Below are positions 3,781 through 18,958 of a DNA stretch of 23,281 nt, piece by piece. A program made the position numbers and the translations under genes. The notes under the pieces were generated by a model. The model did not search any database and was not told the origin of the DNA. It was given only the letters and a program-made list of their open reading frames with translations. Source of the DNA: Candidatus Poseidoniaceae archaeon (GTDB taxonomy: Archaea > Thermoplasmatota > Poseidoniia > Poseidoniales > Poseidoniaceae); NCBI GenBank assembly GCA_965662895.1, contig CBFIJH010000019.1, positions 1 to 23,281 of the forward strand, read 5' to 3'. The stretch's first letter is position 1; every line of letters begins with the position of its first letter.

Positions 3781-4695
3781 TCAATCGAACCGTTGCAATT
3801 CCATCAGTTCCTCTGTGGTGAGCGTGTCTCCAGACATCAACTTGCTCATCAAATCTTGGACTTCAACACGGGCCGTTGGACGTGCACCTTCGCCTGCTTC
3901 TGCACTGCGTCGAGCACGCATCATGTCTTGAATCGAGTGGAGGCATCGAAGCGATACGATGTAGAATCGATGCGCTTTGTCCGCCTCTTGTTTTGTGTTT
4001 CTCAATTCGCGATGCTTTGAATTCGCTCGCTCACGTTGTTTGTTGACTTCCTTGTCCCACTGAATCATCAAATCGTGTGCTTCTTGTGCAGCAGCAGCAG
4101 CTTCTTGAACAGCATGATGTGCTTCATCGTGCTCTTTTCGAGCAGCATTGAGTTCCTCATTTTCACTCGATTCGCTCGACATTGATTCCTGGTCTTTCTT
4201 CATCTGTCGGATTTTTGCGTTGAGTTCTTTCAACCGCTTCATGACTTTTCCTTCGTTTTTGCCTGTGTGTTCGCCTCGTTCGAACTCACGCTCAAGGCGA
4301 CTGAACTCTCGTTGCAGTGATTGAAGTGTCACTGGACGTTCACGACGTCCTCTTTGTCCGCGTTCAGCAGGCTTCTCTTCGGGTTGATCAGCACGCAACT
4401 TGTCTCGGATTTCTGCGACTCTCTTGCTGGCTTCATTACGAATTCCTTTCTTCTCTCGAACAAGTTGGTTCATCTGTTCACGAACTTGCTTTTGTTGCTC
4501 CGAGAGTTGAATCAATTCTCGAACTTCAGAGTTGAACTCGTTTCGTTGCGAGACCAATTCCTTGGTTTTTTCATTCCACGAATCGCGTTCCTCACGGTAT
4601 TGCGTTGCCTTTCCGTCTAGAATGTTGCGTCGTTCTTCAAAGAGTTGCTTGAAATCATCCATGGTCTTCACTCTCGTTCTGTGGAACATCGACAT
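3781..4695 (-). CDS. Archaeal coiled-coil protein (COG1340-like)
   Basis: Long E/K/R heptads with RDxxN, ADxxH repeats and the C-terminal SGDTLTTEELMELQ signature. Confidence 0.8.
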   Translation of the reverse strand: MSMFHRTRVKTMDDFKQLFEERRNILDGKATQYREERDSWNEKTKELVSQRNEFNSEVRELIQLSEQQKQVREQMNQLVREKKGIRNEASKRVAEIRDKLRADQPEEKPAERGQRGRRERPVTLQSLQREFSRLEREFERGEHTGKNEGKVMKRLKELNAKIRQMKKDQESMSSESSENEELNAARKEHDEAHHAVQEAAAAAQEAHDLMIQWDKEVNKQRERANSKHRELRNTKQEADKAHRFYIVSLRCLHSIQDMMRARRSAEAGEGARPTARVEVQDLMSKLMSGDTLTTEELMELQRFD

Positions 4696-5507: not shown

Positions 5508-5738
5508 ACCGAGAAGTCGATCAATTGCTCCTAGATTGGCATTGGCCCTCGATTGGATAAGGATGATTTTTGAATTCTTACGAAAGAACACCGCACAACC
5601 TTTCTTTCCAACAAGCGTCATCTTCTTTCTTGAACCAAGCAAATCCTGAATGTTTTGAAATGGCCCGTTGGGTTCAAGGATTTGGACAGACGTAGTGTCT
5701 GGAAGTTGCCGTAAGCCAGCGAGAATGGATTCTTCCAC
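5496..5738 (-). CDS. Small hypothetical protein
   Basis: 80-aa ORF with GTG start 3 nt after the GNAT stop, filling the gap at the end of the minus-strand operon. Confidence 0.55.
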   Translation of the reverse strand: MEESILAGLRQLPDTTSVQILEPNGPFQNIQDLLGSRKKMTLVGKKGCAVFFRKNSKIILIQSRANANLGAIDRLLGSIE

Positions 5739-5741
5739 GTC

Positions 5742-6284
5742 TCAGACTTTATGCTTGGGTGTATCATTGTTTGGATGAAATTGTTGAAGTCCACCACGCA
5801 TCATGTATCCCATACCTTGTCGGTAATAACCGTGCAACTCCTGCATAATTTCCAAACCTCTGTTTCTATAGAATGTGATTGCACGATGATTTGATGCCCG
5901 AACTTCCAATTGAACCCTACGATATCCCTTTGCCCAAAGTGTGTCAACCATCTCGTTCCAAACAACAGAACCCCAGCCTTTTCCGCGAGAACCCGAGTCG
6001 AGTACAAACGACACGATTCGAACGATATCATCCTTGAACGGTGTTGTCCATAACAGTCCGCGCATCGAACTAGGCACCGATTCAGTCGAATCAAAAAGCA
6101 TGAAGTTCCCTTCCCAATCTGGAACAGGCAAGGATTGAATCGATCCGAGGAAGTATTCTTCTCCTGTACCTTCAAGAAACAGTTGTTGGATTGTTTGAAT
6201 CCATTCGATGGGAAGTTGTTCAGGAGAGGGGCTGTGTCGCCATCCCTCGTCCAATGCATCACTTCCTCGATTGTTTTCGTCCAC
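5742..6284 (-). CDS. GNAT acetyltransferase (RimI/Ard1-like)
   Basis: Motif A SRGKGWGS and LEVRASNHRAITFYRNRG...GYY. True start probably GTG 6284 or TTG 6254, not 6419. Confidence 0.85.
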   Translation of the reverse strand: MDENNRGSDALDEGWRHSPSPEQLPIEWIQTIQQLFLEGTGEEYFLGSIQSLPVPDWEGNFMLFDSTESVPSSMRGLLWTTPFKDDIVRIVSFVLDSGSRGKGWGSVVWNEMVDTLWAKGYRRVQLEVRASNHRAITFYRNRGLEIMQELHGYYRQGMGYMMRGGLQQFHPNNDTPKHKV

Positions 6285-8376
6285 GGGAACGACCTTGGCG
6301 AATGTCAATTCGTTTTGACGTTCGTTTCTTCGATTGGCGCTGCTTTGGTTGAGATGTTTTCTTTTCACCCGAACCAAGACTGGCAATACCCCCTTTTGAG
6401 AGCAAGGCATCAAGTTCATTCAACGAAATTGAATCGCCGCTTGATGCCTTCTGACGAACCTCATTGATGTTGACTTCAGGGGCCCTCCTCCGCGTTCTTC
6501 GTGATTGAGGACTTGTTGTTCGTCGCTTTTGATTTCGATTGTTCTTCGATGAAATCCGTTGCCAAGCTTCCAAACGTCCTATTTCGCGACGGAGTTCGTG
6601 TTTTGTGGAGTATTGTTGATTGATGGAACGCTGAAGCAACTTGGCATTTTTCTGGAATTCCTTAACCGACTTTGGATTGAGGTGAACGCCTTCAAGAGCA
6701 GGGTTGCTTTCAGTCAGTTTGACAAGAACGTCTTCCTCTCGTTTTCTTGTTTTCTTTAGAGCTCGGTATTCCTCGTTTTGTTCACGTCGCAATCGAATGA
6801 AATCTTGATGAGCTTCATTGGATTGAAGCGATGCTTGGTACATCGCTTGCAGTTCAAAGAAATATGCAAAATCGCCTCGTTCAACACCGAGTGTTGGTGC
6901 ATTGAAGATGTCGACTTCTGCGGTCAATTTTTCGAAGATCCGAACCATTTCTTGGTGAATCCGTTTTGTCGGGATTGCAATACGTTGGTTGATTCCATCG
7001 CGAACTTCGCGTAACTCCTGGACTTTCATGCTTAATGGACGTAGTTCAGCAAGGATTTGTTGCCGATCGGAGCGAACGTTTCTCGTTTCACGAAGGCCAC
7101 CTCGAAGGAGTTCCAAAAGTTCCTTTGAATTTTGGCGCTCTTCGACAAGTTCTCGTATTTGTTTTTCGACATCCTCAAGCGATGTTCTCAATTCCTCAAG
7201 GCGGGTTGCGATTTCATCGCTGGATGTTTTTCGCAAATCGTGGAAAAGATCCTCGGGTTCTTCATTGACTTCGACCAATGGCTCGCATATATCCTGCCAA
7301 GAATTCCCTTCAGAAAGCATGTGAATGGCGCGCATGAATTCATTTTGAATCGACATCGCCCCTTCTGCTCGAACCACTCGTGAGAGATCGTGACCATGAT
7401 CAAATGGATCTTCAATTGGCATCACGTGTTGCATGCGTCCATCGTCGGCACCAGTAACGACTTCAAGTGGAAGCGGGCCAACGTGTTGCCATTTCTTTTG
7501 TTTGGTAGAGAGATGGGCCCCATTGCGAATCGAGACGACCATCGCTTCCCAATCCCAACGAGTTGCAAATCGGTCGAAGAAACCAATCAACAGCGATGCA
7601 AGCGACATTGTGTTTTTGGTATCGTACGCATCATCGTTAAATCCAACATCGAAGGTCTTGCCATGGAATGTTAAGGGCTTCTTGTTGTGGTTTTCTTGCC
7701 TGTTTGGAACGAGCGGAGGTTGAACAATCTGCGCGTATTGAATCGCCAGTAGAGTCCATGCATAGGACGACAATGTTCCTTCGAAGGCATTGTTGATTCC
7801 TCTTCTGCTTGCCCAATACTTGATCATTTGAACCAGAAGACGTAGCCGTTCCTCCTGAGCGTAAGATTTGAGCATCATTGAATTGTAGATTGCAAGACGG
7901 TTGTCAAGTGAGATGTCCACATCCAAACCTGAGCGAGGGTCGCGGAACTTGATGATTGGAATCCTTGCTTTTGGGATGAGTTGAATGTCATCCATCCCTT
8001 CCTCTTGCAGAACACCTGACAATTTTCGCAAGACTTTTTGCGGTGTTTTCTTTTTGAATGAAAGGCAAAGATCGAGATCGCCCGTTCCGATGGATAGATT
8101 GGTTACACTCGAACCAAAAGGTTCAACCACGGAATTTTTGCCAAATCGACGGAAAATAACGCCCTTTAGGTGCTTTGTAAGTGATTCCCGACTTTTCGAT
8201 TTTGCATCCCCAATTCGCTTGATAACGTTGTTCAAGTCCGATTCAAGCTTTTGCAAATAGTTCTCATCAATTGAATCCAAGTCAGGGATTTCGATGTCTT
8301 CGAGGAGATGTTTGTAGAGATAAGGCCAGCGATCTTGTTGATCCTTTGACAACCCAGTTGTTGTGCAGACGCTCAC
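6259..8376 (-). CDS. Cid1/TUTase-like non-canonical poly(U/A) polymerase fused to a COG1340-like coiled-coil
   Basis: PFGSS...GDLDL, ARIPIIKF, DVDIS.DN.LAIYNS.ML, IKYWA..RGIN....GTLSSYAWTLL and PAP-associated IEDPFDHGHDLSR. About 300-aa coiled-coil C-terminus ending SGDSISLNELDALL plus basic tails. Confidence 0.88.
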   Translation of the reverse strand: MSVCTTTGLSKDQQDRWPYLYKHLLEDIEIPDLDSIDENYLQKLESDLNNVIKRIGDAKSKSRESLTKHLKGVIFRRFGKNSVVEPFGSSVTNLSIGTGDLDLCLSFKKKTPQKVLRKLSGVLQEEGMDDIQLIPKARIPIIKFRDPRSGLDVDISLDNRLAIYNSMMLKSYAQEERLRLLVQMIKYWASRRGINNAFEGTLSSYAWTLLAIQYAQIVQPPLVPNRQENHNKKPLTFHGKTFDVGFNDDAYDTKNTMSLASLLIGFFDRFATRWDWEAMVVSIRNGAHLSTKQKKWQHVGPLPLEVVTGADDGRMQHVMPIEDPFDHGHDLSRVVRAEGAMSIQNEFMRAIHMLSEGNSWQDICEPLVEVNEEPEDLFHDLRKTSSDEIATRLEELRTSLEDVEKQIRELVEERQNSKELLELLRGGLRETRNVRSDRQQILAELRPLSMKVQELREVRDGINQRIAIPTKRIHQEMVRIFEKLTAEVDIFNAPTLGVERGDFAYFFELQAMYQASLQSNEAHQDFIRLRREQNEEYRALKKTRKREEDVLVKLTESNPALEGVHLNPKSVKEFQKNAKLLQRSINQQYSTKHELRREIGRLEAWQRISSKNNRNQKRRTTSPQSRRTRRRAPEVNINEVRQKASSGDSISLNELDALLSKGGIASLGSGEKKTSQPKQRQSKKRTSKRIDIRQGRSRGRKQSRK

Positions 8377-9239
8377 TCTTCCTCGCCTCCACCCTGTTCT
8401 TGCTGACGACGCTCACGTGCTAAGGCCCGAGTCGACTTTCCTCCATCTCGAACCCTCTCTGCATCAGCCATCAGTTCGTGGTAGCCTTGTTCGATGCAAT
8501 TGTTCCAAAATTCGATACCTCGCTGGCTTTCGTCAAGAGCTTGTGCAAGACGTGTTGTTCTTGCATCAGCATGCTTCCGCTTCTGTTCGTTTTCGATATA
8601 AGTGTCGTGAAAAATCTGGTTCTCATCGTGCAATTGAACCATTGCTTGATGCGCTTTGTCTGCTGTTTCAAGAAGTTGCTTTGCTTGTTCTCGAAGCTCT
8701 TTCATTTGATTGATTTGAGCAAATTTTTCCTTTCGATTGCCAACCCACTCTTCATGTTCCCGAATGAGATTTTTCATTTGGTTGAGTGTTGAACGTTCAT
8801 CGACATGGGTGCCCCAGTTGGTTTGCAGTGAAAGGTCGAGGGCATCGAGTCTTTGCTGCAATCGCTCTCTCGCCCATTCTGGATCAGGGTTTGAATCCCC
8901 TTTTTTGGCGGGTGTTGACTGTCGGATTTCGTTTGCTTCCATGAAGAGCAATTTTGCTTTTGCTTGTGCCGTATTTCGTTCTTTCTTCAATGATGCAACT
9001 TTTCTGTTGACCTCGTCGCGCTTGCTCTTGGCGGCACGAGCCATTGCTGCAGCCTCGGTAAGTTCATCACTACGGGCATCGAGTTGCTCGGGAATTTCAG
9101 CTGCAAGACGTTCTCTTCGGTGAAGGATGGCTTTGCCTAAAAACTCGGGCGTGATTGCCAAGAGTTCCTCAGGCGTCATGTATTCGACCCACCCTGCTTC
9201 CTTCAATAAACCTCCCGTCATGCCTCTGTTCGACATCAT
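8373..9239 (-). CDS. Archaeal coiled-coil protein (COG1340-like)
   Basis: KRDEVN..V..LK.ERN and ADKAHQ repeats; stop overlaps the next start (GTGA). Start probably ATG 9239 (GGAGG upstream) or 9221. Confidence 0.78.
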   Translation of the reverse strand: MMSNRGMTGGLLKEAGWVEYMTPEELLAITPEFLGKAILHRRERLAAEIPEQLDARSDELTEAAAMARAAKSKRDEVNRKVASLKKERNTAQAKAKLLFMEANEIRQSTPAKKGDSNPDPEWARERLQQRLDALDLSLQTNWGTHVDERSTLNQMKNLIREHEEWVGNRKEKFAQINQMKELREQAKQLLETADKAHQAMVQLHDENQIFHDTYIENEQKRKHADARTTRLAQALDESQRGIEFWNNCIEQGYHELMADAERVRDGGKSTRALARERRQQEQGGGEEE

Positions 9240-9270
9240 GCTCAAAAACCTCCATTGTTTCAAGGTCGTT

Positions 9271-11409
9271 ATGGAAGGGTTTCGCAATCCAATTCCAACC
9301 ACGTTCCTGGTTGGTTTGCTTTTGTGTTCTCTTCTCTCAGTACCTGTTGTTCAAGCCGATACGTCCACCAATGTGCAATTCGTTGGTCCGAATGCTTTGA
9401 CCTACTCCGGAGCAGATCAATTTGGAACACTTACCCTCAATTCTTCCGTTCGGCAAGGCGATTTCCTCCAACTTGAAATCCCGGTTGAGAACATCGGTTC
9501 GACTGCAGAAAGTGCCTCGATTGTTCTCCAAGTTTCTCAAGAAACCTGGAACGAAACGATGCAATTCGAGAATGTTTCCATCCAAGGAATGAGTACGCAC
9601 GTGTTCTCTTATCTCTCATCCGTGCACGTTCTCGAGGGTTTGCTTGAGGTTTCGATGACATTGAACAACACACCATTGTCACTTAATGACTCAATTCAGG
9701 TGGGTCCACCACCCCTGCCAAATGTTCACGTCGCCCTTGAACTGTTGACATCAACATACGATGCCGGCGATACGATTCAATTCAATCTTACATCAAGCAA
9801 CATGGAAGGGGAGCGAGCTTTCAACGGAAGGCTTCGTTGCGATTTCTTGAATGAAGAAGTCTACAATGAAACCTTGACCATCGATATCGGTCAGGAAAAC
9901 ACAGATGTTCTCTCATTAAACGCGAGACCTGGGGTCTTAGAGTGTGAACTTGCCGGCGATCGGAATCAATCGATTCAAACCCAAACAATCTTCTCACTGG
10001 ACGACCTGCAGGCTGCTGAGTTTGCACAAGCTGGCTCAAGCGGTTTCACAATTCTTGGAGGCCCGCATCACGCTGGTGATGATGTCGAAGTATCTGTCAT
10101 TCTGCGAAATCAAGGAGATGCATCGGGTTCTGCGCGATTGCATGTGAATTTGGATGGTGTGGAAAAAACCAGCAATCTTCTCAACCTTGATGCAGGTTCT
10201 GCAGGTGAGTTGCGACTTACATTTGAAGACTTGAACGAGGGCAATCATGGAATAACTTGGTCGATTGTATCATCGGATGGAATTGTTGCTTCCCATCTTA
10301 GCGGTACGGATACCCTCTCAGTTTTACCTTCACAGGATATGTACGTTGAACTTGAAGCAGAACAAACCGAAAACGGTGTGCAATTAAGTTGGAACGTTTC
10401 GATTACAAATGGACCCGATCGAGAGGTGAAATTGCGCTATGGTTATCGCGTTTCGGGTACCGATGTTTACGTTAACGAACAAACAGTAACGTTGGGTTCT
10501 GGTACGCTTACTGGTCAAACAGCGCTCGGTGATGTTTCCTCAGATACAGTTGTCATGCGAATGGAACCGGTAGGATGGACGGCCTCTTCGAACAGTTACA
10601 TCGCAAGTGCAACGTTCGTGACAAGTGATGTCGACTATTCGATTGAAATCGACCCGATAACGCTTCCAAGAGAACCCATTGAAGGAGATGACATGACGGT
10701 AACCATCATGCTTGCCAATGCTGGTTCCTCACAGGGCCCCTCAGGGATGTTGTATCTGACAGATAGCGATGGCTATGTGTTTGGAAAACTCTCGACTGAG
10801 CCAGTGGGTGCAAGTTCATCTCGAAATGTTGATGTTACATTCAAGGTTCCAAAAGGAAATGAAATCCTTCTAACAGCGGAATGGAGATTCGATTCATTGT
10901 CCATTGAGGATGAATTAAGCATACTCGTTTCGGCTCAAATCACGGACGATGAAGGAATGGAACTTCCGTTTGCGGCAATCGGAAGCGGGATTGCCATCGC
11001 TTGTTTCATCATCTTCGTTCTTCACCTGCGTCGTGGTACATCAGAGACATCCGAATCGAAGACTCCAAAGAAGAAAAAGGATGCAAAAAAGGTAGAGAAA
11101 AACGTCGAGCCAGTGGAAAAATCGTGCCCAGCATGTGAACGAACCTTACGCATACCTGGCGACTACTCAGGAGCAGTACGGTGTCCTGATTGTGCAGAGA
11201 AGTTTCATGTTGAAGCCGAAGATTCGTTTGATCTTGATGAAGAACTTGATGCGATGGACGAACCAGAGGATTCGACGCCTCCTGTGGTCGAACAAAAAGT
11301 TGAGATTTCCTGTCCTGAGTGCTCGTCCAAACTACGTGTTCCATCCAACTACAAAGGTTCAGTTCGCTGTCCGTCGTGTTCGAATGTGTTTTCGGCTGCC
11401 CAAGGATGA
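9271..11409 (+). CDS. Single-pass surface protein with CARDB/Ig-like domains and two cytoplasmic C4 zinc ribbons
   Basis: Signal peptide ending VVQA; Ig-like repeats (V.N.G motifs); TM FAAIGSGIAIACFIIFVL; CPAC..CPDC and CPEC..CPSC. Start set at ATG 9271. Confidence 0.8.
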   Translation: MEGFRNPIPTTFLVGLLLCSLLSVPVVQADTSTNVQFVGPNALTYSGADQFGTLTLNSSVRQGDFLQLEIPVENIGSTAESASIVLQVSQETWNETMQFENVSIQGMSTHVFSYLSSVHVLEGLLEVSMTLNNTPLSLNDSIQVGPPPLPNVHVALELLTSTYDAGDTIQFNLTSSNMEGERAFNGRLRCDFLNEEVYNETLTIDIGQENTDVLSLNARPGVLECELAGDRNQSIQTQTIFSLDDLQAAEFAQAGSSGFTILGGPHHAGDDVEVSVILRNQGDASGSARLHVNLDGVEKTSNLLNLDAGSAGELRLTFEDLNEGNHGITWSIVSSDGIVASHLSGTDTLSVLPSQDMYVELEAEQTENGVQLSWNVSITNGPDREVKLRYGYRVSGTDVYVNEQTVTLGSGTLTGQTALGDVSSDTVVMRMEPVGWTASSNSYIASATFVTSDVDYSIEIDPITLPREPIEGDDMTVTIMLANAGSSQGPSGMLYLTDSDGYVFGKLSTEPVGASSSRNVDVTFKVPKGNEILLTAEWRFDSLSIEDELSILVSAQITDDEGMELPFAAIGSGIAIACFIIFVLHLRRGTSETSESKTPKKKKDAKKVEKNVEPVEKSCPACERTLRIPGDYSGAVRCPDCAEKFHVEAEDSFDLDEELDAMDEPEDSTPPVVEQKVEISCPECSSKLRVPSNYKGSVRCPSCSNVFSAAQG

Positions 11410-13725: not shown

Positions 13726-14733
13726 ATGTTGGGTTCCAAGGACCAAGCAGAAGAACGTCCAGATGCGGACTTGCGTGACCGCCTCCACGCAATGGAGGCA
13801 AAAGTCCGAAAGCTGCGAGAAGTCCGCAACAATTTCAGTTCAGATGCACGTTCTGCTGCTGAACAACGAAATGCCGTGCAGGCTCAATACAAAGAGCATC
13901 GAGAAAAGGTCGATGTCGTCCTTGCAGAAGTCAAGGCCATCCGCAGTGAAATTCGCATCTTTAAGGAAAAGCGAAATGCGATTCAGGACCAAATCAAAAC
14001 CATCATTGGTCAGGCCAAAGGACGCCGTGGCGAAAAGAACGAGAAAAAGAGTGCCACCGCTGAACATGCGCAACTCAAGCGTGACGTCGCGCAACTTGAG
14101 AATCTCTACAATACCTCGGCAATGGGTCCAAAGAAAGAAAAAGAAACGATGGAGAAAATCAAGAACATGCATCGTCGAATTCAAGAATTGGCTCCGGATG
14201 TCGAAGCATTTGAACTGGTCGCTGTTGATCTCGATGACCTCGACTCTGCCATCAAGACACTCAAGGCAGAAGCCGATGCAGCCCACCAAGCCATGCTCGA
14301 AGCTGTAGGTCGTGCCGATGAAAAGTCAAAAGAAGTGGACGAGGCGTTCGCACATCGTGATTTCCTCAAAGCAGAGGGTGACCGCCATCACAACGAATAC
14401 GTCGCACTACGAGCAAAAGCCGATGAGACGCACGCAAAAATCGATGAGATGATGACGGATGTCAACAAGGTTCGAGATGAATTGAACATGGCACGTGAAG
14501 AGAGGAAATCTTGGATGACGGAGCACAACAACGCAGTTACAAAGAGCCTCAAAACCGGGGCGGAGTCGGAAGAAGTTGCTGATGAACTGATTAGCAGTCT
14601 CCTAAGTGAAGGAACACTTACGTTCGGAGGAATGGGTCAAGAAGAGACAACGGGCGACAACACTCCACGACGTGGTGGAAAGAAGAAGAAGATGGGCCGA
14701 ATCGACATGTCGGCTGGTCGTCGTCGACGATGA
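13726..14733 (+). CDS. Archaeal coiled-coil protein (COG1340-like)
   Basis: RN-repeat heptads, T..MGPKKEKE.MEKI, ADAAHQ/GDRHH/ADETH repeats, basic tail. Confidence 0.8.
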   Translation: MLGSKDQAEERPDADLRDRLHAMEAKVRKLREVRNNFSSDARSAAEQRNAVQAQYKEHREKVDVVLAEVKAIRSEIRIFKEKRNAIQDQIKTIIGQAKGRRGEKNEKKSATAEHAQLKRDVAQLENLYNTSAMGPKKEKETMEKIKNMHRRIQELAPDVEAFELVAVDLDDLDSAIKTLKAEADAAHQAMLEAVGRADEKSKEVDEAFAHRDFLKAEGDRHHNEYVALRAKADETHAKIDEMMTDVNKVRDELNMAREERKSWMTEHNNAVTKSLKTGAESEEVADELISSLLSEGTLTFGGMGQEETTGDNTPRRGGKKKKMGRIDMSAGRRRR

Positions 14734-17968: not shown

Positions 17969-18958
17969 ATGAGTGACATGGCAAAGAAGATTAGCGCTAA
18001 AGCGCGAGCAGCAGCCCGTAAGCAGAGAGATAAGTGGAAGACCAAGCGTTGGTACACAATCCGAGCGCCTCGACACCCATGGAATTACCAAAACATTGGT
18101 GAGACCATCGGTGAGTCCGACGAACACATCATCGGTCGTATCTACGAGATGACCCAGCAAGAATTCAACGGTGATTTTACCAAGATGCACGTTATGCTGC
18201 GCTTCCGAGTTTCTGGAACTGTAGGGCAAGATGCTTTGACCACATTTGTCGGTCACCACCACCAAACCAATCACATTCGACGTCAAATCCGCCGATACCG
18301 TGGGAAGATCGACGATGTTCTCGACGTCGTTACCGAAGATGGTTTCTTGGTCCGAATCAAGCCGTTGATCATCACACAAAAGCGAATCCAAACCTCGGTT
18401 AAACAATCCATCCGTGCGAAAACACGCGACGTTGTGCTTGGCTTTGCTGCAAAATCCACCTATGATGCATTGCAGGTTGCAATGCTTGATGGATCGCTTG
18501 AGTCTGAAATACAGAACCAAATCAAGAGCATCTATCCCTGTCGGTCGGTCGTCATCCGCAAGAGCCAACTTCTCCAAGAAGGTGTCGAGATGGACCAAGG
18601 TCCTACGCTTGACGAGATTCACGCAGAAGAGGCCCGCCGAGAAGCCGAAATCAAGGCCAAGAAGGCTGCAGCACTTGCTGAAGCCATGGCCGAAGAAGAG
18701 TTTGAAGGAGACGATGACGAAGCAGAAGATTCTGAAGAAGACGCAGTCGAAGAGGTTGCAGAGGCTGAAGAAGCGCCTGCAGAAGAGGAAGCAATTGTCG
18801 AAGAAGCCTCTGAAGAAGAGGCTCCTGCTGAAGAAGCATCCTTCGATGATGTTGATTACAGTTCAATGACCGTTGCAGAACTCAAGGAACTACTCAAGGC
18901 GGCAGGTAAGCCTGTCTCCGGAAAGAAGGCTGAACTTATCGAGCGCCTGCAAGAGTAA
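17969..18958 (+). CDS. rps3ae: 30S ribosomal protein S3Ae (eS1) with acidic linker and C-terminal SAP domain
   Basis: DKWKTKRWYTIRAP, IGET, GRIYE.T, IRRQIRR...KID, IYP.RSV.IRKS; tail MTVAELKELLKAAGKPVSGKKAELIERL. Confidence 0.93.
   Translation: MSDMAKKISAKARAAARKQRDKWKTKRWYTIRAPRHPWNYQNIGETIGESDEHIIGRIYEMTQQEFNGDFTKMHVMLRFRVSGTVGQDALTTFVGHHHQTNHIRRQIRRYRGKIDDVLDVVTEDGFLVRIKPLIITQKRIQTSVKQSIRAKTRDVVLGFAAKSTYDALQVAMLDGSLESEIQNQIKSIYPCRSVVIRKSQLLQEGVEMDQGPTLDEIHAEEARREAEIKAKKAAALAEAMAEEEFEGDDDEAEDSEEDAVEEVAEAEEAPAEEEAIVEEASEEEAPAEEASFDDVDYSSMTVAELKELLKAAGKPVSGKKAELIERLQE

Follow-up and report, generated by a model that had tools for sequence, protein, structure and literature searches.

A Cid1/URT1-type terminal nucleotidyltransferase module fused to a resident coiled-coil gene in archaea of the family Poseidoniaceae

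The window analyzed here is an entire contig of 23,281 nucleotides (CBFIJH010000019.1) from a Candidatus Poseidoniaceae archaeon (GCA_965662895.1), whose genome of 1.86-Mb in 26 contigs is 92% complete with a contamination estimate of 0.04%. Its minus strand carries, at 6259..8376, an open reading frame (ORF) of 705 aa with a GTG start that consists of a nucleotidyltransferase (NTase) module and a coiled-coil/basic-tail module. The N-terminal module (residues 1–375; 7252..8376, −), delimited by phmmer and by AlphaFold2 (AF2) with Foldseek, is of the Cid1/URT1 terminal nucleotidyltransferase type. It contains a Pol-beta-type NTase palm, PF22600 (MTPAP-like_central; residues 57–174; 7855..8208, −; Pfam 97.8 bits, cut-off 27), and a PAP-associated (PAP/OAS1 substrate-binding) domain, PF03828 (residues 258–329; 7390..7605, −; Pfam 49.5 bits, cut-off 22.6). 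S89 (8110-8112, −) and the catalytic residues D100/D102 (8071-8079, −) and D154 (7915-7917, −) all lie within the palm, where the signature motifs hG[GS], [DE]h[DE]h, and h[DE]h are all present. In the translation, FGSS is located at 87–90, GDLDL at 99–103, DVDIS at 152–156, NS at 165–166, and GTLSSYAW at 200–207. The nucleotide-recognition motif (NRM) IEDPFDHGHDLSR occupies residues 321–333 (7378..7416, −) and includes D323-x2-D326-x2-H329, aligned to IEDPFETSHDLGR of URT1 and to further eukaryotic homologues. Additionally, the catalytic and nucleotide-binding residues S89, D100, D102, D154, N165, K186, and S203-S204-Y205 are intact in 41/42 rows of an archaeal alignment, whose rows are not independent of one another. 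Full-length homologues of 673–750 aa are present in six other genera. An acidic extension of residues 1–56 (8209-8376, −) precedes the catalytic core, and in the archaeal proteins M1, C4, G8, and an RWP motif of this extension are nearly invariant.

To place the module within its superfamily, we compared it with proteins of solved structure. In a phmmer search of Protein Data Bank (PDB) sequences, URT1 is the top match (E 4.6e-42, 148 bits, over residues 62–368), followed by Cid1 (E 6.7e-40, 140 bits), CutA (E 4.3e-39, 138 bits), TUT4 (E 3.2e-38, 135 bits), and TUT7 (E 4.2e-36, 128 bits), while GLD2 (96 bits), TUT1 (91), MTPAP (59), and Trf4 (42) score lower. All 38 PDB matches at E≤1e-3 are non-canonical terminal nucleotidyltransferases. 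Similarly, an AF2 model built from 42 homologues (mean predicted local distance difference test score 81) retrieves URT1 (7xs4) in Foldseek with E 5e-22 and a template modelling score (TM) of 0.86 on target, and then CutA, Cid1, and TUT7; across these four proteins, the TM ranges from 0.76 to 0.87 on target, and the overlay spans 340–375 columns of URT1, Cid1, and TUT7. The Pfam family NTP_transf_2 gives only a weak match of 17.3 bits, under its cut-off of 21. NCBIfam yields zero matches for the protein, and PADLOC yields zero for the protein and six neighbours. Collectively, by all the sequence and fold-model criteria tested, the catalytic module belongs to the Cid1/URT1/TUT4-7 group. These results bear out the original prediction, made from the DNA alone, of an ORF at 6259-8376 with the complete motif set of TRF4/Cid1-family polymerases: every motif that it listed is found in the translation, both Pfam models score above their cut-offs, and the motif set is confirmed to lie far beyond chance expectation. 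The proposed family also holds, since PF22600, PAP_assoc, the PDB matches, and the fold agree, and no grouping with CCA-adding, MNT, or CD-NTase enzymes appears among the 38 PDB matches, with NTP_transf_2 under its cut-off and PADLOC and NCBIfam empty.

The remaining residues, 376–705 (6262..7251, −), form a second module, which is defined by AF2 and by stand-alone homologues at the matching slot of other genomes. It opens with the motif DLFHDLR, continues through long antiparallel helices (386–465, 470–485, 496–557, and 568–618 in the AF2 model) and a conserved short helical stretch (637–668; consensus EVRxKAxSGG..SL..LDxLLSxGG), and ends in a disordered Lys/Arg-rich tail (residues 669–705; 6262..6372, −) that, by AF2 and composition, has 16 Lys and Arg among 37 residues and an isoelectric point of 12. 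For residues 376–705, Pfam returns zero families at E≤1 and Foldseek zero hits at E≤1e-3. A wide VIA-align search reached Z up to 11.9 with generic coiled coils (SMC, cohesin elbow, chemoreceptor, and prefoldin), which is below the chance level of ~13 for helical models, and its assignments were set aside.

The history of this second module was read from genomes that have no NTase domain. We examined two families of the order, f1, which is read as Poseidoniaceae from record labels (named hits are labelled Candidatus Poseidoniaceae, Poseidoniales, 'Euryarchaeota', or MGIIa), and f3, which we take to be its sister family, Thalassarchaeaceae. In one g13 and one g16 genome of f1 and in one f3 genome, traced via PurP, an ORF of 285, 436, or ≤354 aa lies between the DUF7121 gene and the GNAT gene. 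These stand-alone ORFs match residues 376–705 only, and the 4-bp overlaps often recur in them. The stand-alone proteins start with a short leader rich in K, R, and G (RGG-like in one), which lies directly ahead of the DLF.DL motif; in the fused form, this motif follows the NTase module. A profile of the C-terminal module detects 144/149 genomes of f1, 2/2 of a third family, f2, and 137/149 of f3, in 26/26 genera, with frame lengths of ~320–360 aa in f3 and ~700 aa where the NTase is present. Elsewhere in the phylum it detects 0/179, against 25/25 for f1 and 16/16 for f3 in the same sample. Since residues 376–705 stand alone at the same operon slot across the order, the coiled coil is a resident gene specific to the order, and a eukaryote-type module has been fused in frame to its 5' end. 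What is new here is the recognition of residues 376–705 as an order-wide stand-alone gene, and hence of the NTase as a fusion onto a resident gene.

In contrast to the coiled coil, the NTase domain was found in one family among the ~50 sampled in the phylum. In the order sample, PAP_assoc is detected in 98/149 genomes of f1, 0/2 of f2, and 0/149 of f3; in the phylum sample, it is detected in 42/57 of f1 and 0/343 of the other families; and it is found in 0 of 14 control genomes. The palm model PF22600 is less specific: it is detected in 97/149 of f1, 0/2 of f2, and 0/149 of f3, as well as in 2 of the 14 controls. PAP_assoc occurs in 22/24 species of the window's genus. By genus, it is present in g1 (18/18), g12 (46/49), g14 (16/17), g15 (8/8), g17 (3/3), and g18 (1/1), sparse in g13 (6/43), and found in 0/10 genomes of g16, g19, g20, g21, and g22 together; these counts mean not found in the genomes searched, many of which are incomplete. 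A scan with the archaeal alignment gave 177 relatives, of which the best 80 are all of MGII/Poseidoniales type except for three odd submitter labels; homologues in other prokaryotic phyla may lie beyond these 80. The same alignment found zero relatives in viral contigs, and a scan of genome contigs with a single eukaryotic protein (P0137) found zero matches. Database records label the gene only as 'nucleotidyltransferase domain-containing', 'DNA polymerase sigma', or 'hypothetical'. The three records with ill-fitting labels among the best 80 of 177 (L029, L037, and L073) hold the full-length gene under two bacterial names and one Thalassarchaeaceae name; they are probably mislabelled or mis-binned metagenome-assembled genomes.

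The NTase ORF is the middle gene of an operon. Its start overlaps, in the sequence GTGA, the stop of a DUF7121-family coiled-coil gene upstream (8373..9302, −), and this 4-bp overlap is kept in 5/7 genus representatives. Downstream lies a RimI-like GNAT acetyltransferase gene (5742..6254, −); its tblastn homology sets in at residue 56–60 of a longer frame, and its start is probably the TTG at 6254, 4 nt past the NTase stop. The order PurP, DUF7121, (KaiC), GNAT, NTase, DUF7121, CARDB/zinc-ribbon gene, DtxR, orf520, coiled-coil gene, and sugar nucleotidyltransferase is shared by the window and six further genera, each represented by one genome; one of the six is a single-contig genome of 2.06-Mb. 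Neighbouring genes are archaeal housekeeping genes (PurP, ribosomal protein S3ae, PdxS, ThyA, and KaiC-like), and the GC content of the NTase gene is like that of its flanks. Moreover, contigs from four other runs of one study match the locus at ≥99%, and one of them, of 13.3-kb, spans 5700-9400; the four runs may derive from the source sample and were weighted below synteny. The gene is therefore genuinely archaeal, because synteny extends over seven genera and a 13.3-kb contig spans the locus. In these respects the original prediction stands: the translational coupling to archaeal-type neighbours is real, the proposed fusion to an archaeal coiled coil is matched by a stand-alone gene for the C-terminal 330 aa at the same locus where the NTase domain is missing, and contamination or a chimeric assembly is excluded by the conserved order and the spanning contig. 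The distribution across Poseidoniales, which it had put forward as a check, shows the domain in one family (98/149 in f1) and in 0/149 genomes of the sister family f3.

Several further features of the block were recorded. A second DUF7121 paralogue lies at 3781..4695 (−), and together with 8373-9302 (−) and 13726-14733 (+) it makes three paralogous DUF7121-type coiled-coil genes within one 11-kb block, whose position is conserved order-wide. These proteins resemble the C-terminal module in size and all-helical structure and share its genomic block, and a language-model look-up, usable as a lead only, places one DUF7121-containing cluster among the nearest three. However, homology of the module to DUF7121 (PF23435) was not detected: BLASTP gives E 0.5 and 0.017 against the flanking DUF7121 genes, no Pfam match is seen at E≤1, and hhalign gives a probability of 1.6–20% for the module against DUF7121-type genes versus 78–97% among the three genes themselves. 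Divergent from the NTase operon, a 760-aa ORF (9127-11409, +) encodes a CARDB domain and several C-terminal zinc ribbons; its position is conserved, with only 27–33% identity between genera. The longest frames of this ORF and of the adjacent DUF7121 gene overlap by ~175 bp, so both true starts are further in, that of the DUF7121 gene probably at an internal Met near 9179-9239. The S3ae ORF (17969-18958, +; 329 aa) is covered by its family model over residues 12–207, leaving a C-terminal extension of ~120 aa. In one g13 genome, the PurP orthologue (L104, G046:C2:308657-309814) is reported with one in-frame TGA. An ORF at 5801-6262 (−), in another frame overlapping the GNAT gene, was discarded as not a gene, with neither a family match nor homology in relatives. 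The window contains no Rfam families and no tRNAs.

To reveal the origin of the catalytic module, we set up a series of searches and trees. When 1.84 billion representatives were searched in full with HMMER, 7661 of them reached E≤1e-3, and 312 reached E≤1e-30. Archaeal-type representatives score 608–184 bits; after a break, the next proteins follow from 182 bits at ~35–39% identity. Among 19 of the nearest non-archaeal relatives that were looked up, seven are metagenome proteins without a name, none bears a prokaryote name, and the 12 named ones all belong to eukaryotes (Phalansterium, Hydra 'TUT4-like', Pigoraptor, Planoprotostelium, Ginkgo, Filamoeba, Lichtheimia, Pecoramyces, Fabomonas, Neoconidiobolus, a Microbotryomycete, and Spizellomyces). 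The trees sample the best 150 representatives of the relatives and contain no GLD2/Trf4/MTPAP outgroup. In a quick tree of 125 catalytic domains (26/151 rows were left out because they had less than 75% coverage or a two-module layout), the archaeal rows and the metagenomic protein P0198 form one clade (SH-aLRT 99). A careful tree combined the 13 archaeal representatives with 64 of the 111 other rows, chosen to span clades (77 rows in all), and there the 13 form one clade with support 100/100. The archaeal catalytic module thus has a single origin. We infer transfer from a eukaryote to an archaeon, because the module is distributed in one family, has the architecture of an add-on, and scores much better to URT1/Cid1/TUT4-7 than to other eukaryotic paralogues.

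The later fate of the fusion is visible in a tree of the C-terminal module (35 rows, rooted on 10 f3 rows), in which the split between f3 and f1 has support 97/92. One clade (98/93) unites all 16 active fused forms with three stand-alone g13 forms and the dead variant P0198; one of these stand-alone forms is sister to the fused g13 gene (91/84). Because the stand-alone g13 forms nest among fused ones, at least some of the unfused genes in f1 arose by secondary loss. Two full-length fused homologues retain a recognizable NTase domain with a dead active site, namely L122:1-1956 (−) of genus g22 and P0198: FGS is replaced by YSG or IDS, GDLDL by GGIEV or GEFGV, and DVDIS by PVRIS or NVNMG, which removes the GS motif and all three catalytic Asp. 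Judged by these replacements, both look like natural pseudo-enzyme versions. No NTase remnants were found in the stand-alone genes or their N-terminal extensions (all E>0.03). Within the window's genus, where synonymous divergence is unsaturated, the ratio of nonsynonymous to synonymous rates (dN/dS) is 0.05/0.05 and 0.03/0.06 for the catalytic/C-terminal halves. Both halves are thus under purifying selection, with dN/dS ~0.05.

As reported in the available part of one source, the D330/E333/H336 cluster of Cid1 (DxxExxH) underlies selectivity for uridine triphosphate (UTP) and is also seen in enzymes proven to be poly(U) polymerases, Cid1 becomes a poly(A) polymerase upon H336A/N substitution, and an ExxNxxR cluster accompanies the preference of CutA for cytidine triphosphate (PMC5689010). 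In the archaeal protein, HMMER aligns IEDPFDHGHDLSR onto IEDPFETSHDLGR such that the second His of the motif, H329, falls on the His of URT1; the UTP-associated His claimed by the original prediction is thus retained. H329 is kept in 37/42 aligned archaeal rows, and D323 is nearly invariant. A preference for UTP appears most likely because of this DxxDxxH cluster, and we judge it somewhat likely that the enzyme is a uridylyltransferase.

Starting from what was observed of fold and motif identity, restricted distribution, fusion, and purifying selection, we regard as quite likely, taken as a whole, the explanation that the ORF encodes an active Cid1/URT1/TUT4-7-type enzyme, derived from a eukaryote, fused to a resident coiled coil, and engaged in U-tailing. 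An early Poseidoniaceae (MGIIa) ancestor would have taken the catalytic module once from a eukaryote; the module would have been joined in frame to the resident gene at its 5' end, replacing that gene's short basic (K/R/G-rich) leader; and in some genera it would later have decayed to dead active sites or been lost. Mechanistically, the first module would act as a template-independent RNA 3'-terminal ribonucleotidyltransferase, with UTP most likely preferred, and would add short U or U-rich tails to RNAs brought near by the coiled-coil/basic-tail module and the operon partners. The basic-tailed coiled-coil tether, the replaced basic leader, and the fixed operon with DUF7121 and RimI-like GNAT genes suggest a role for the resident module in guiding the enzyme to its substrates. 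The U tails could then offer a single-stranded 3' foothold to 3'-5' exonucleases, such as an RNase R-like RNB protein or the RNase PH subunits of the exosome. Possible tail readers are encoded in this genome: an RNB protein of 786 aa (L015:634-2994, +, on genome contig C6), whose best PDB match is RNase R (7.5e-47; Dis3L2, 3e-30), and three RNase PH genes. Nearly all occurrences of the RNB domain fall in f1 (115/149 genomes, compared with 2/149 in f3), and the gene is probably a second, independent acquisition touching RNA decay. From the conserved DxxDxxH motif, we infer an RNA 3'-uridylation pathway. The most far-reaching form of this proposal, a eukaryote-like RNA uridylation system in Poseidoniaceae in which an acquired terminal uridylyltransferase (TUTase) is tethered to a native ribonucleoprotein scaffold and U-tails direct the decay or processing of specific RNAs, is offered only tentatively.

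Several observations weigh against this explanation. A search of sequencing runs listed no RNA run that contains the locus. The middle acidic residue of the NRM is Asp (D326), which gives DxxDxxH instead of the canonical DxxExxH. Furthermore, the H329 column (window 7390-7392) holds Arg in P0123, P0126, and L024, Leu in P0107, and Ile in L023, and nucleotide specificity may differ among the lineages with these residues. In the careful tree, the archaeal clade has a long stem of 1.05 changes per site and joins the rest at an unsupported node (39/39), and trees without an outgroup do not resolve the donor lineage. Lineages have lost or inactivated the domain repeatedly, so its activity is dispensable. 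By genus, the RNB domain and the NTase disagree (38/43 vs 6/43 in g13, 4/17 vs 16/17 in g14, and 0/3 vs 3/3 in g17), and RNase R was rejected as an obligate partner of the NTase. Finally, a search for Sm/LSM proteins (PF01423) gave no match in this 92%-complete genome, and the same search was positive in all three archaeal controls that have them.

Other explanations of the gene were weighed on the same evidence. A metagenome-type assembly of 26 contigs invites the suspicion of eukaryotic contamination or a chimera, but the fused gene keeps its order in seven genera and occurs in 177 genome records, its start and stop adjoin or overlap archaeal neighbours, the contamination estimate is 0.04%, and independent contigs cover the junctions; this explanation has practically no chance of being correct. 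The Pol-beta NTase fold is common to defence-type nucleotidyltransferases (CD-NTase/CBASS, MNT-HEPN, or MenT-like) and CCA-adding-type enzymes, and the weak NTP_transf_2 match (17.3 bits, cut-off 21) points the same way. However, the protein has a PAP_assoc domain and a Cid1-type NRM, PADLOC and NCBIfam are empty, and the gene resides in a conserved housekeeping neighbourhood and not in a variable island, which makes a defence or CCA-adding role extremely improbable. An anciently archaeal family with vertical inheritance, or archaea as donor to eukaryotes, would fit an archaeal clade that nests in no single eukaryotic subgroup of a tree without an outgroup. Against this history, the domain is found in one family of ~50 sampled, it is an add-on to a gene that stands alone in the sister family, and its scores are nearer URT1/Cid1/TUT4-7 than GLD2, TUT1, MTPAP, or Trf4, which suggests branching inside the eukaryotic radiation; an archaeal origin is accordingly very improbable.

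Two further alternatives concern activity. The NTase module might be a pseudo-enzyme or scaffold in this genome, with function residing in the coiled-coil module alone, as the dead versions in relatives (L122 of g22 and P0198) and the coiled-coil gene that works without an NTase domain across the sister family would allow. The catalytic and nucleotide-binding residues are nevertheless intact in the window protein, as in 41/42 rows, and purifying selection on the catalytic half is as strong as on the C-terminal half, which leaves this possibility only a slight chance. Alternatively, the enzyme could be active as a poly(A), C-adding, or mixed-tail polymerase that supplements exosome-type A-rich tailing. 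Specificity in the Cid1 family hangs on a few NRM residues and is hard to infer from sequence, the cluster is not the canonical one, the His is absent from 5/42 archaeal rows, three of which have Arg as in CutA, and CutA scores almost equal to Cid1. On the other hand, H329 falls on the His that selects UTP in URT1 and persists in 37/42 rows, D323 hardly varies, and the top solved relatives are the uridylyltransferases URT1, Cid1, and TUT4/7, well above GLD2, MTPAP, and Trf4. A non-uridylating polymerase of this kind is unlikely, though it has to be taken seriously beside the preferred explanation of an active, U-tailing enzyme.

Archaeal RNA tailing is ascribed to the exosome and to CCA-adding enzymes, and Poseidoniaceae are among the most abundant surface-ocean archaea. 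Most genera of this globally abundant marine family have an intact Cid1-type enzyme that is fixed and under purifying selection. The capture event can be read from genomes, in the fusion, in the unfused form surviving in the sister family, and in the later inactivations and losses, and, if the direction is as proposed, it would be a clear instance of an RNA-metabolism enzyme passing from a eukaryote to an archaeon. The domain being present, dead, or absent offers a natural comparison for the role of U-tailing in cells without eukaryotic decay machinery, as well as a first functional handle on the order-specific coiled-coil protein. Should U-tailing prove true, these archaea would provide the first case of a uridylation pathway in non-eukaryotes, with Thalassarchaeaceae as its natural 'minus-enzyme' control. 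In the literature, the available part of PMC11646218 presents uridylation of RNA 3' ends by Cid1-type enzymes as a eukaryotic trait, and that of PMC6240794 cites archaea for CCA-adding enzymes only. The full texts searched, with subscription journals and supplements outside the search, contain no description of such an enzyme in Poseidoniales or other archaea, nor of DUF7121.

Compared with known systems, the archaeal enzyme is most similar to URT1, Cid1, TUT4, and TUT7. They have in common a two-domain core in which the Pol-beta palm is inserted in the PAP/OAS1 substrate-binding domain, the catalytic Asp triad, the SSY stacking motif, and the acid-acid-His nucleotide-recognition cluster; the likeness amounts to E 1e-36 to 5e-42 in sequence and TM 0.76–0.87 on target for the model. 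CutA (Aspergillus/Thielavia), a C/U-adding member of the Cid1 family, is nearly as close (E 4.3e-39, TM 0.82–0.84); however, its cluster is ExxNxxR, whereas the present enzyme has DxxDxxH, with Arg at the His site in 3/42 archaeal rows. GLD-2, TUT1/Star-PAP, MTPAP, and Trf4/5 share the superfamily and the domain pair but are more distant, at 96, 91, 59, and 42 bits, respectively, versus 128–148 bits for the Cid1/URT1/TUT4-7 group. The members of that group are described in the literature as eukaryotic, while the host of the present enzyme is a Poseidoniales archaeon. In contrast to TUT4/7, the archaeal protein has no zinc knuckles, N-terminal disordered regions, or second (inactive) module. 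Instead, it carries two additions relative to URT1/Cid1/TUT4-7: at the N-terminus, 56 aa in which a pattern of Cys, Gly, and Trp is conserved, and at the C-terminus, 330 aa of archaeal origin that form the coiled coil and basic tail.

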